NCBI RefSeq assembly: GCF_041886205.1
Contig: NZ_CP169029.1
Length of the DNA: 64,000 bases
Source: Escherichia coli
GTDB lineage: Bacteria; Pseudomonadota; Gammaproteobacteria; Enterobacterales; Enterobacteriaceae
Strand: one strand, 5' to 3'
The notes beneath the pieces were generated by a model that did no database searches, was not told the origin of the DNA, and was given only the letters and a program-made list of their open reading frames with translations. Positions 50,769-59,048 of the stretch are shown here, piece after piece. A program made the position numbers and the translations under genes. The first letter of the stretch is position 1; each line of letters starts with the position of its first letter.

Positions 50769-51623
50769 TTACACCAACGCCCCGTAAATCGTCAGTAGTG
50801 CAATCACCACCACGACCACGAACGAGGTTTTCTTCGCCATTGAAACCGCTGCCTTCGGCGTCTCCACCTTATCGACATGCGGTTCACGCGCCAGAGAGAA
50901 CTGCGCCAGACGCGTTAACACCTGATACTGCGAAGTATGGAAATCACCCAGCGAAGCAAACCAGGCCGGTAACGCTTTCTCACCATGACCGATCAAGGCA
51001 TATACCACACCCGCAAGACGAACCGGCACCCAATCCAGTACATGAAGCACGGCATCAATGCCGGACTGTAAACGATGATGCGGCGTCTGATATCGCGCCA
51101 GCCAGTATTGCCATGCACGCAAAAACGCATACCCCATCAGCGTAACGGGTCCCCAGGTTCCCCCCACAATCAGCCAGAACAGCGGTGCAAGATAAAAACG
51201 AAAGTTAATCCACAGCAATGCATTTTGCAGCTCACGCAAATACTCACGTTCGTCGCAGCCTGCCGGGACGCCGTGAATCATGGTGAGTTCGCCAGCCATC
51301 GTGGCACGGGCATGGCTATCATTACGTGAAGCAGCTGTCAGATAAGCATGATAATGAAGACGAACTTTACCTGCGCCAATACACAGCAAACCAATCAGCA
51401 GCCACACCAGTAGCGTGGGAACGTTGAACAATACTCCCTGCAATGCGCGTAACAGTAAAAAAGTCACGCCCATCGCAATAATGGTCATGCCTAACGTGCG
51501 CCCGAGAGAAAAATGTTTCACCCGCCGAAAGAACGCTTCAAGACGATGATCAAGCTGCCAGTGCTCGCCCAACTTAAACAGGCGCTCGAAAATTAACACC
51601 AGTAAGGTTGTAAATAGCGTCAT
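50769..51623 (-). CDS. ampE: Inner-membrane protein AmpE
   Basis: ORF 50769..51662; start refined to [15 protein letters not shown] (cat 51621-51623), overlapping ampD stop; 284 aa. Confidence 0.92.
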
Positions 51624-52171
51624 GTTGTCTCCTTGCTGACCAGCACACGAAACCGTGCCCAATCAAATGCAGGACCGGGATCGGTTTTCCGATCCGGCGC
51701 AATATCACAATGGCCCGTCATGTTATTAGCGATATCGGGATAGCGATCTATCAGTGCCCGCGTAACCGCCGCAAGCTGTTGATACTGCGCATCGGTATAC
51801 GCCAGCGTATCGGTGCCTTCAAGCTCAATCCCAATAGAAAAATCATTGCAGCGTTCGCGCCCCTGATACTGAGAGACTCCCGCATGCCATGCACGTTTAT
51901 CGAAAGGAACATACTGGACTATTTCACCATCACGGCGAATCAAACAGTGAGCGGAGACGCGCAAATGGGCGATCTCAGCAAAGAAAGGATGTGCCTGCGG
52001 ATCAATAGTTCCAGTGAATAATGCGTCGATCCACGGACCGCCAAACTCGCCTGGCGGCAGGCTAATATTGTGCACCACCAGCAGGGTGGGTGTTTCGTCA
52101 TCCGGGCGGCAATCGTAATGTGGTGAGGGAACGCGGCGCGCGCCAACCAGCCACCCCTGTTCTAACAACAT
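51620..52171 (-). CDS. ampD: 1,6-anhydro-N-acetylmuramyl-L-alanine amidase AmpD
   Basis: 183-aa [28 protein letters not shown]. Confidence 0.95.
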
Positions 52172-52258
52172 GCAGGATCTCCTTATATGTGGTGCTAATA
52201 CCCGGTTCAGAGTAGCATGTTTCTACCTTATGATTCGTTAGCTATCTGGAGTTTTAAC

Positions 52259-53152
52259 ATGCCGCCTCGCCGCTATAACCCTGACACCCGACGTGACGAG
52301 CTGCTGGAACGCATTAATCTCGATATCCCCGGCGCGGTGGCCCAGGCGCTGCGGGAAGATTTAGGCGGAACAGTCGATGCCAACAATGACATTACGGCAA
52401 AACTTTTACCGGAAAATTCTCGCTCTCATGCCACGGTGATCACCCGCGAGAATGGCGTATTTTGCGGCAAACGCTGGGTTGAAGAGGTGTTTATTCAACT
52501 GGCAGGCGACGATGTCACCATAATCTGGCATGTGGATGACGGCGATGTCATCAACGCCAATCAACCCTTGTTCGAACTTGAAGGCCCATCCCGCGTGCTG
52601 TTAACGGGCGAACGCACTGCGCTTAATTTTGTGCAAACCCTTTCAGGAGTTGCCAGTAAGGTACGCCACTATGTCGAATTACTGGAAGGCACCAACACGC
52701 AGTTGTTGGATACGCGCAAAACCTTACCTGGCCTGCGTTCAGCTCTGAAATACGCGGTACTTTGCGGCGGCGGAGCGAATCACCGTCTGGGGCTTTCTGA
52801 TGCCTTCCTGATCAAAGAAAATCATATTATTGCCTCCGGCTCAGTGCGCCAGGCCGTCGAAAAAGCGTCCTGGCTGCACCCGGATGCGCCAGTAGAAGTC
52901 GAAGTAGAGAATCTGGAAGAACTTGATGAAGCCCTGAAAGCAGGAGCCGATATCATCATGCTGGATAACTTCGAAACAGAACAGATGCGCGAAGCCGTCA
53001 AACGCACCAACGGCAAGGCGCTACTGGAAGTGTCTGGCAACGTCACTGACAAAACACTGCGCGAATTTGCCGAAACGGGCGTGGACTTTATCTCCGTCGG
53101 TGCGCTAACTAAACACGTACAAGCACTCGACCTTTCAATGCGTTTTCGCTAA
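52259..53152 (+). CDS. nadC: Nicotinate-nucleotide pyrophosphorylase (quinolinate phosphoribosyltransferase)
   Basis: ORF 52217..53152; start refined to ATG 52259 ([19 protein letters not shown]); 297 aa. Confidence 0.93.
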
Positions 53153-53354
53153 TTGCTGGCAGATTTATCCGCTCCATCGCGGGCGGATAATCTCCCCTTC
53201 CCCAACTTTCTTCGTAACGCCTCGCAAATTTCTTGTCTTTCGCTGCAACGAAATAAAAAACCTCGGAAGCTGCTTTCCCGTTTCGTTTTTTGCCCCTCGC
53301 TTGTGCCGATGGCGTTTGCCAAAGTAGCGCCAACCAAATCAAGGAGCGAAACAG

Positions 53355-56409: not shown

Positions 56410-56416
56410 TGGGAGA

Positions 56417-57460
56417 TTAAAGGTTGTTGAAAATGCGGTTTTCTTGTTCCAGCACACGAATAAACGTGGTGCGCTTGGTCAGCTCTTTCAGGCGTGAAGC
56501 CCCAACGTATGTACAAGCTGAACGCAGGCCGCCCAAAATATCACGCGCGGTATTTTCAACCGGGCCTCGCAGCGGCAGCTTAACGGTTTTACCTTCTGCT
56601 GCGCGATATTCCGCAACGCCGCCAACGTGACGTTTCATCGCAGACTCGGAGCTCATGCCGTAGAACAGCATAAATTTCTCGCCGTTCTCCTCAACGATGC
56701 GACCGCCGCTCTCTTCGTGGCCCGCCAGCATGCCGCCAAGCATGACGAAATCGGCACCGCCGCCAAAGGCTTTCGCCACATCGCCCGGCGTGGTGCAGCC
56801 ACCATCGCTGACGATCATTCCGCCCAGACCGTGCGCAGCATCGGCACATTCGATTACCGCAGAAAGTTGCGGATAACCGACGCCTGTTTTGACGCGAGTT
56901 GTACAAACAGAACCTGGGCCAATGCCAACTTTAACGATATCGGCACCTGAGAGGATAAGCTCCTCACACATTTCACCAGTCACTACGTTACCAGCACAAA
57001 TGGTTTTGGTCGGCCACGCTTCACGCGCTTTCGCAACGAACTGCACGAAGTGTTCGGAATAACCATTCGCCACGTCAATACAAACGAAGTTTAATGCCGG
57101 GTTCAGGTCGAGAATCTGTTTAGTTTTTTCGAAATCCGCATCAGACGTACCGGTAGAAACCATCACATGTTTCAGCACATCAGCGGAAGAATTGTTGATA
57201 AACGCTTGCCACTCTTCGACAGAATAGTGTTTATGCACAGCAGTCAAAATATCAAAAGAAGCCAGCGCAGAGGCCATAGAAAATGTGCCTACGGTGTCCA
57301 TATTTGCGGCGATAATCGGCACGCCGGACCAGCTCTGACCTGAATGTTTGAAGGTGAATTGACGTTCCAGTTCAACATCGGAACGGCTTTTAAGAGTGGA
57401 GCGTTTAGGGCGGATGAGAACGTCTTTAAAACCTAACTTCAGATCTTCTTCAATACGCAT
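56417..57460 (-). CDS. guaC: GMP reductase
   Basis: 347-aa [24 protein letters not shown]; IMPDH/GMPR TIM-barrel motifs. Confidence 0.96.
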
Positions 57461-57684
57461 GTGCGGATTCCTGGGGTTAATGGCTATAAGGGTAAGAGCG
57501 CAACTCCAGTGACGCTATCATACGCACTAATCAATGCGGCGCAAGACTGCGAAATTGTCTTTTTTTACGCTACAATCCCATAAATTTACCTGGTAAATAG
57601 TGAGCGAACGTTTCATCAATTTCGCTTTCGTGCACTCATTTTTAACGTTTTGATAATCATGATGAATTCCCGGGAATATAAATT

Positions 57685-58305
57685 ATGAGGTATATAGTTG
57701 CCTTAACGGGAGGCATTGGCAGTGGCAAGAGTACCGTTGCCAATGCGTTTGCTGATCTCGGAATTAACGTCATTGATGCCGATATTATTGCGCGTCAGGT
57801 GGTTGAACCAGGTGCACCTGCGCTACATGCCATTGCTGATCACTTTGGCGCTAACATGATTGCTGCTGATGGAACATTGCAGCGCCGGGCCTTGCGCGAG
57901 CGGATCTTCGCCAACCCGGAAGAGAAAAACTGGCTTAACGCCCTGCTGCATCCGCTGATTCAGCAAGAGACGCAACACCAGATCCAGCAAGCTACTTCCC
58001 CCTATGTACTGTGGGTTGTGCCATTGCTGGTAGAAAACTCACTGTATAAAAAAGCGAATCGAGTGCTGGTGGTGGATGTCAGCCCAGAAACGCAACTTAA
58101 GCGCACCATGCAGCGCGATGATGTAACTCGCGAGCATGTCGAACAAATCCTTGCTGCTCAGGCAACGCGCGAAGCCCGCCTTGCCGTGGCAGATGACGTC
58201 ATTGATAATAACGGCGCACCGGATGCTATCGCATCGGATGTTGCCCGCCTGCACGCACACTATTTGCAGCTTGCGTCGCAGTTTGTCTCACAGGAAAAAC
58301 CGTAA
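57685..58305 (+). CDS. coaE: Dephospho-CoA kinase
   Basis: 206-aa ORF; P-loop GGIGSGKST. Confidence 0.95.
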
Positions 58306-59048
58306 TGCAGACCCAGGTCCTTTTTGAACATCCACTAAATGAAAAAATGCGTACATGGCTGCGCATTGAGTTTTTGATTCAGCAACTCACCGTTAATTTA
58401 CCCATCGTTGACCACGCTGGCGCGCTGCATTTCTTCCGTAATGTCAGTGAATTACTGGATGTTTTCGAGCGCGGCGAAGTCCGCACTGAGCTGTTGAAAG
58501 AACTTGACCGGCAGCAACGTAAACTCCAGACCTGGATTGGCGTGCCTGGCGTGGACCAGAGCCGTATTGAAGCATTAATTCAGCAGTTAAAAGCGGCGGG
58601 GAGCGTATTAATTTCCGCGCCGCGTATCGGGCAATTTCTGCGTGAAGATCGTTTGATTGCTCTGGTGCGTCAGCGACTGAGCATCCCAGGCGGCTGTTGC
58701 AGCTTTGATTTACCTACATTGCACATTTGGCTGCATCTACCCCAGGCGCAGCGCGACAGCCAGGTAGAAACCTGGATTGCCAGCCTGAACCCGCTCACCC
58801 AGGCACTTACCATGGTGCTGGATTTAATTCGCCAGTCGGCCCCCTTCCGTAAACAAACCAGCCTGAATGGTTTTTATCAGGATAACGGTGGCGATGCCGA
58901 CTTGCTGCGCCTGAATCTGTCGCTCGATTCACAGCTTTATCCGCAAATTTCCGGACATAAGAGCCGTTTTGCCATTCGTTTTATGCCGCTGGACACTGAA
59001 AACGGACAGGTACCGGAACGTCTGGATTTCGAACTGGCCTGTTGCTAA
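58305..59048 (+). CDS. zapD: Cell division protein ZapD (FtsZ-associated)
   Basis: 247-aa ORF; ATG overlaps coaE stop (TAATG at 58303-58307). Confidence 0.92.

Follow-up and report, generated by a model that had tools for sequence, protein, structure and literature searches.

Seven pairs of neighbouring genes overlap by 1 to 11 nucleotides (nt) in a 64,000-nt stretch of Escherichia coli chromosome (contig NZ_CP169029.1; the whole stretch is referred to below as the window), among them coaE and zapD, which encode an enzyme of coenzyme A (CoA) biosynthesis and a modulator of FtsZ. Our analysis indicates that these overlaps are very probably ordinary operon junctions of the E. coli core genome, at which each gene pair is carried on one mRNA and coupling by termination and reinitiation is the most likely mode of translation. 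The overlaps are more than chance would produce yet typical for E. coli; they represent normal operon packing, and as such they are already known. The coaE-zapD neighbourhood is ancient; Enterobacterales species keep the two genes close together, and an overlap of exactly 1 nt is a state of the family Enterobacteriaceae.

Seven overlapping gene junctions in the window

The junctions were read straight from the window sequence on both strands, and all seven exist at the coordinates given for them in the first-pass annotation, including the 11-nt overlap of hofB and hofC (Table 1). Two details of that earlier list need amendment: three of the junctions (fhuC/fhuD, yadG/yadH and ampD/ampE) lie on the minus strand, and the motif ATGA or TAATG, claimed also for fhuC/fhuD, is correct for five pairs, fhuC/fhuD reading TGATG instead. 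In all seven cases the two genes are adjacent and co-directional, and both open reading frames (ORFs) are intact. No other overlap exists among the 36 co-directional adjacent pairs of the window. The genes share 4 nt at four of the junctions and 1 nt at two, and these six belong to the class of 4-nt ATGA or 1-nt TAATG/TGATG overlaps; hofB/hofC, with 11 shared nt, falls outside this canonical class. At the yadG/yadH junction the minus strand reads ATGATG (27197-27202), so that two adjacent in-frame start codons overlap the stop codon by 4 nt and 1 nt, respectively.

An overlap motif alone means little, and its weight comes from the overlapping ATG being the real start of the next gene. We rejected the idea that the motifs arose by chance on two grounds: an ATG overlaps only 2 of the 47 other stop codons of the window, and a distance of exactly -4 or -1 nt (negative values denoting overlaps) is found in 6 of the 15 pairs spaced between -20 and +20 nt, an enrichment with a binomial P of 4.6e-5 against a uniform spread.

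Enriched as they are, these distances are those expected of an E. coli genome. According to Huber et al. 2023 (PMC10666635), 707 of 2,987 unidirectional E. coli gene pairs (24%) are spaced at -8 to +6 nt, with -4 as the commonest distance, then -1 and then -8; a small additional peak lies at +9 to +12 nt (7%). In the window, 7 of 36 co-directional pairs (19%) fall into the first of these ranges and 4 into the second. Table S2 of the same study lists coaE/zapD at -1, zapD/yacG at +9, hofB/hofC at -11, fhuC/fhuD at -1, and ampD/ampE, yadG/yadH and pcnB/folK each at -4; six of our seven overlaps had therefore been catalogued at the same distances. Taken as a bare list the overlaps matter little, since 4-nt and 1-nt overlaps are the commonest same-strand spacing both in E. 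coli and in prokaryotes generally.

Table 1. Overlapping junctions, the operons of the ampD-yacG region and two ribosome-binding motifs, in window coordinates
Feature	Position	Strand	Description
fhuC stop / fhuD start	210-214	-	plus strand reads catca = TGATG; 1-nt overlap
pcnB stop / folK start	13055-13058	+	ATGA; 4-nt overlap
Fimbrial usher stop / minor fimbrial subunit start (htrE/yadM positions)	17966-17969	+	ATGA; 4-nt overlap
yadG stop / yadH start	27199-27202	-	plus strand tcat = ATGA; 4-nt overlap
ampD stop / ampE start	51620-51623	-	plus strand tcat = ATGA; 4-nt overlap
hofB/hofC	55180-55190	+	11-nt overlap, no canonical motif; hofC ATG at 55180, hofB TAA at 55188-55190
coaE stop / zapD start	58303-58307	+	TAATG; 1-nt overlap
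ampD-ampE bicistronic unit	50769-52171	-	ampD 51620-52171, ampE 50769-51623
ppdD-hofB-hofC, cryptic type IV pilus genes (pilA/pilB/pilC homologues)	53355-56382	+	ppdD to hofB +9 nt, hofB to hofC -11 nt
coaE-zapD-yacG operon	57685-59255	+	coaE 57685-58305, zapD 58305-59048, yacG 59058-59255
ampE Shine-Dalgarno motif GGAGA	51628-51632	-	inside ampD, 4 nt upstream of ATG; -8.5 kcal/mol
zapD Shine-Dalgarno-like motif AGGA	58292-58295	+	inside coaE, 9 nt upstream of ATG; -4.3 kcal/mol (weak)

Conservation of the coaE-zapD-yacG cluster

The RefSeq annotation of identical sequence names coaE, zapD and yacG, in that order on one strand. Their domains, CoaE (PF01121), ZapD (PF07072) and YacG (PF03884), were confirmed on close relatives, and the database protein P0001, which is 100% identical to the ZapD of the window, carries PF07072. 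A scan of one genome per species with a narrower ZapD alignment yielded 80 loci, all of them from Enterobacterales, and the order coaE-zapD-yacG was found in all 80 species. The distance between coaE and zapD was -1 nt in 52 species (Enterobacteriaceae), -8 in six, -4 in one, -23 in one and +2 to +6 in the other 20, mostly Pantoea, Erwinia and Mixta. The zapD/yacG distance lay between +8 and +15 nt at 78 of the 80 loci. An AGGA motif 8-11 nt upstream of the zapD ATG is present in nearly all of the species, even where the C-terminus of CoaE varies. In addition, hofB and hofC overlap at each of the 74 scorable Enterobacterales loci, by 11 nt in 41 and by 8 nt in 24 of them, the rest showing distances of -4, -14, -1 or -23 nt.

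More distant ZapD lineages were sampled one at a time. In six of them coaE lies directly upstream of zapD, at distances of +14, +33, +62, +107, +130 and +146 nt, and a further locus (P0228) was uninformative, its contig ending 276 nt upstream of zapD. An overlap of exactly 1 nt is thus specific to the family Enterobacteriaceae. The distant loci often read pilB-pilC-pilD-coaE-zapD-yacG, with a Nudix gene and secA coming next on the opposite strand, and a pilD-coaE-yacF(zapD)-yacG cluster has been described earlier (Vos et al. 2014, PMC4083091; Veyrier et al. 2015, PMC4498754). At locus L092 coaE and zapD are followed by a gene with an SLT (lytic transglycosylase) domain. In the window, positions 53355-62625 hold ppdD-hofB-hofC, then guaC and yacM on the opposite strand, coaE-zapD-yacG, and mutT and secA, again on the opposite strand. 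This segment is a broken copy of the arrangement pilA-pilB-pilC-pilD-coaE-zapD-yacG / Nudix-secA, which is intact at the distant loci L084 and L093. In the stretch examined, the annotation shows no pilD gene (Peptidase_A24) between hofC and coaE; the distant lineages have one.

These observations remove the apparent oddity of the coaE-zapD junction, and it is the tight spacing, not the exact overlap, that is conserved in Enterobacterales. The first-pass annotation had remarked that the overlap links CoA biosynthesis to a component of the division machinery, which it found not obviously functional. The pairing is an old and widely conserved arrangement that already figures in the two studies of the pilD-coaE cluster cited above. 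The pairing is not odd in functional terms either: about 70% of closely spaced E. coli gene pairs encode no subunits of one complex (PMC10666635), and within the window pcnB and folK are equally unrelated.

Natural CoaE-ZapD fusion proteins

Seven of the best 150 representatives of 50%-identity clusters matching ZapD (P0164, P0181, P0229, P0249, P0252, P0259 and P0260; 469-512 amino acids) are in-frame fusions in which both the CoaE and the ZapD domain are complete. They derive from uncultured Gammaproteobacteria, including metagenome-assembled genomes labelled Chromatiales, and one of them falls in a 90%-identity cluster whose 45 members come from many independent metagenomes and from such Chromatiales-labelled assemblies. 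The fusion loci (L084-L091; for instance, L084:5001-6464) stand in a pilB-pilC-pilD context. Four lineages were examined, and in three of them yacG comes directly after the fusion or overlaps it by 4 nt; the architecture recurs in separate samples. The linkers between the two domains, 15-60 amino acids long, are unrelated in sequence, and the fusions are found at four or more separate positions in a rough neighbour-joining tree of ZapD, which suggests repeated fusion events. Vos et al. 2014 (PMC4083091) mention a CoaE-YacG fusion only, and our literature search found no paper on a fusion of, or an interaction between, CoaE and ZapD beyond that study and Veyrier et al. 2015. Within the literature searched, the natural CoaE-ZapD fusions are new.

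A different group of joined proteins (P0002, P0004, P0007, P0043 and P0121) comprises mostly single-copy, E. coli-like metagenome chimeras that combine CoaE with ZapD, ZapD with YacG or ZapD with GuaC, and are probably frameshift or assembly artefacts. As can be read from the sequence, deletion of the TA of TAATG would join coaE and zapD in frame, and because of this the chimeras illustrate the ease with which a 1-nt overlap can turn into a fusion.

The fusions are a hint that CoaE and ZapD are linked in function, not a demonstration of it. CoaE and ZapD could be real functional or physical partners, for example if CoA or energy status fed into the bundling of the FtsZ ring, in which case the junction would be more than housekeeping. 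Such a reading is permitted by the presence of coaE directly upstream of zapD in every informative context (80 Enterobacterales species and six distant lineages), as well as by the occurrence of in-frame fusions at several places of the tree, one type of them recovered from many independent metagenomes. On the other hand, adjacency can be inherited synteny, and an AlphaFold2 model of one fusion comprises two confident domains joined by a disordered linker, without clear packing of one domain on the other (pTM 0.70). Moreover, coaE is tightly paired elsewhere with unrelated genes, namely aroE (median gap -4 nt, n = 206) and a gene for an MltE-type transglycosylase (median gap -2.1 nt, n = 113; both from Table S4 of PMC10666635). 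On balance we regard a genuine partnership as doubtful. Were it real, it would offer a testable handle on why a CoA-biosynthesis enzyme, an FtsZ modulator and a gyrase inhibitor travel together.

Co-transcription and probable translational coupling

For several of the pairs the literature lists a shared transcript or describes an operon. Transcripts coaEzapDyacG and ppdDhofBC appear in Table S3 of PMC10666635. The ampDE genes form a bicistronic operon in Pseudomonas aeruginosa (PMC2654508), and the same arrangement is found in the window, where ampE directly follows ampD on the same strand; across 100 species the AmpD-AmpE gap has a median of +1 nt, with quartiles of -4 and +34 (PMC10666635 supplement). 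Consensus promoter scans, which are weak evidence either way, returned one promoter-like site inside coaE (58181-58209; 9 of 12 consensus positions), a weak match of a kind no more frequent there than in shuffled sequence. The same scan of ampD on the ampE strand returned no site with 9 of 12 positions and no excess over shuffled sequence.

For overlaps of 4 or 1 nt, translational coupling is what is usually inferred. Indirect support for it comes from work on native E. coli gene pairs with a distance of -4 nt, four of five of which proved to be strictly coupled (PMC6728339). In most of the pairs tested there the Shine-Dalgarno motif aided reinitiation rather than independent initiation, although its role varied from pair to pair, and coupling no longer holds once the gap reaches about 20-38 nt (PMC10666635). 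By analogy with these pairs, coupling at any single junction of the window is likely; we infer it, because the precedent comes from other E. coli pairs.

The Shine-Dalgarno motifs of the seven downstream genes are on average as strong as those of the other window genes (duplex energy -6.1 versus -5.9 kcal/mol). The individual values differ, however. Good Shine-Dalgarno motifs precede ampE, yadH and the fimbrial subunit gene (-7.4 to -8.5 kcal/mol), those of folK and hofC are moderate, and fhuD has essentially none (-2.2 kcal/mol), so its translation probably depends on reinitiation. The overlapped downstream genes have start regions that are predicted to be more structured than those of other window genes (-15.5 versus -10.8 kcal/mol, P = 0.008). 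This fits independent initiation being disfavoured.

Taken together, the following course of events can be proposed. Each pair would be transcribed on one mRNA, on which the downstream start and the upstream stop have 1 or 4 nt in common (11 nt in hofB/hofC) and the ribosome-binding site would be located inside the upstream gene. A ribosome that finishes the upstream gene would then start anew at the AUG within the overlap, with more or less assistance from the internal Shine-Dalgarno motif depending on the pair, and the structure of the coding sequence may in addition restrict independent initiation.

Alternative explanations for the overlaps

The overlaps would be spurious if the start codons were wrongly annotated and the true downstream starts lay further in. 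Start-codon annotation is error-prone in general, the K-12 YadM protein record stands at version 4 (NP_414680.4), and the ampE ORF holds another potential start, a TTG at 51662. This TTG lies upstream, however, and would make the overlap with ampD larger, not smaller, while neither hofC nor ampE has an alternative in-frame start just downstream. The zapD start is unambiguous, as its ATG is the first start codon of the ORF and the conserved motif FEHPLNEK begins at codon 7; in addition, starts match residue 1 across the species scanned. We therefore rejected wrong start codons as an explanation, which has hardly any probability left: the zapD start is fixed, and the alternatives in ampE and hofC would keep the overlap. 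Alternatively, the paired genes might be co-transcribed but independently translated, with fresh ribosomes loading at the internal Shine-Dalgarno motifs and the overlap playing no part in coupling. The bioBF pair, which is uncoupled in spite of its -4 overlap (PMC6728339), sets a precedent, and the good Shine-Dalgarno motifs of three of the downstream genes, the retention of AGGA upstream of zapD and the 14-146 nt that separate coaE from zapD in distant lineages all point the same way. We nevertheless consider independent translation improbable, given the coupling of the four other tested pairs and the service of most of their Shine-Dalgarno motifs to reinitiation; moreover, fhuD has almost no such motif, that of zapD is weak, and the coaE/zapD junctions are confined to -23 to +6 nt in all 80 Enterobacterales species.

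A third possibility is that turnover of start and stop codons produced the overlaps as a neutral side effect, the letters shared between the two codons easing the formation of ATGA and TAATG, without selection for any effect on expression. A simulation study attributes the distribution of overlap lengths to start and stop codon replacement (PMC3887535). The variation of the coaE/zapD junction from family to family (-1, -4, -8, -23 or +2 to +6 nt), the yad junction, which is at -4 nt here and at +16 nt in K-12, and the use of TGA, without which neither ATGA nor TGATG can form, as the stop codon of five of the seven upstream genes agree with this view. Against it, the -1 state of coaE/zapD has been held in 52 species over about 25% divergence of the ZapD protein, no Enterobacterales junction of these genes exceeds +6 nt, and close spacing in E. 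coli is 4.5-fold enriched among subunits of the same complex (PMC10666635). We regard neutral turnover as somewhat unlikely, and it can hold alongside coupling. Co-transcription with termination-reinitiation coupling remains our preferred explanation, with several points weighing against it. Besides the independent translation of bioBF, the conserved AGGA stands at a good spacing before zapD, which makes independent initiation possible there, and the state of the coaE/zapD junction drifts between families, the start codon in other species being assigned heuristically as the ATG nearest to the alignment start. For the difference in start-region structure, which is based on only seven genes, the higher GC content of coding sequence is a confounder. 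Finally, the gaps of distant lineages are too long for reinitiation, and strict coupling of CoaE and ZapD is therefore not universally required.

Setting of the window and other features

The window is an E. coli chromosome segment that extends from fhuD/fhuC to secM/lpxC and is reversed relative to the K-12 map; the strain is not K-12. Its annotation was carried over from the RefSeq records of two matching genomes after correction for two 1-nt intergenic indels, and all 54 annotated coding sequences are intact ORFs in the window. Bases 51000-59500 are 100% identical to several complete genomes and covered to at least 80% in 5,411 of 5,426 complete E. coli genomes. In contrast, bases 1-25000 find a close match in few genomes and are covered to at least 80% in one place in only 21 of the 5,426. 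The reason is the yad fimbrial operon, which is present in the window as a rare allele.

This chaperone-usher fimbrial operon (13939-20973) is highly divergent, its proteins being 33-58% identical to YadN, YadV, HtrE, YadM, YadL, YadK and YadC of K-12. The names htrE and yadM that the first-pass annotation attached to one of the overlaps consequently hold by position only: the usher shares 58% and the subunit 33% protein identity with K-12 HtrE and YadM, respectively, and the K-12 genes do not overlap, lying 16 nt apart. The overlap at this position is due to the divergent operon carried by the window. K-12 has a separate yadMLKC transcript (PMC10666635 supplement), and in strain PCN061 the yad fimbrial locus is interrupted by two IS1 copies. 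The bordering FolK (13055-13534) is 90% identical to the K-12 protein, a low value for a core gene, which suggests that the recombination tract extends into folK. The neighbouring pcnB is annotated with the non-canonical start codon ATT (11661-11663).

Several non-coding elements were also noted. Rfam matches comprise two tandem copies of naRNA4 in the yacG-mutT intergenic region (59278-59355 and 59395-59471, minus strand, 78 bits each), STnc40 in the secA-mutT spacer (59875-59944, minus strand, 82 bits) and tp2 in the pdhR-aceE spacer (47890-48003, plus strand, 103 bits), where it is antisense to the pdhR-aceE operon. Between the convergent aroP and ampE genes lies a strong hairpin (50736-50760) whose 10 base pairs include 8 of G-C, which is probably the terminator of aroP and possibly that of both genes.

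Comparison with known systems

Six of the seven junctions resemble the dominant overlap class of E. coli as described in 2019 (PMC6728339) and 2023 (PMC10666635) in that they join co-directional operon neighbours through ATGA or T(A/G)ATG. They are like the experimentally tested pairs in their spacing class; the Shine-Dalgarno motif that those pairs have inside the upstream gene ranges here from good to essentially absent. The exception is hofB/hofC, whose 11-nt overlap lies outside the -8 to +6 range. Furthermore, coaE/zapD and fhuC/fhuD are -1 pairs, whereas the pairs tested in the literature are -4 pairs. The bioB/bioF junction has the same ATGA architecture as the -4 pairs of the window, and bioF was translated independently in a reporter assay (PMC6728339), so the ATGA motif alone does not prove coupling.

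With the pilD-coaE-yacF(zapD)-yacG cluster (PMC4083091, PMC4498754) the window shares coaE, zapD and yacG, their order and their common strand. Like the distant lineages it retains pilus genes upstream (ppdD-hofB-hofC) and mutT-secA downstream; unlike that cluster, it has the 1-nt overlap particular to Enterobacteriaceae. The loci encoding CoaE-ZapD fusions likewise contain the same genes, with pilB-pilC-pilD upstream and yacG downstream. In the window, by contrast, CoaE and ZapD are encoded by two ORFs in different frames, with the TAA stop codon at 58303-58305 between them.

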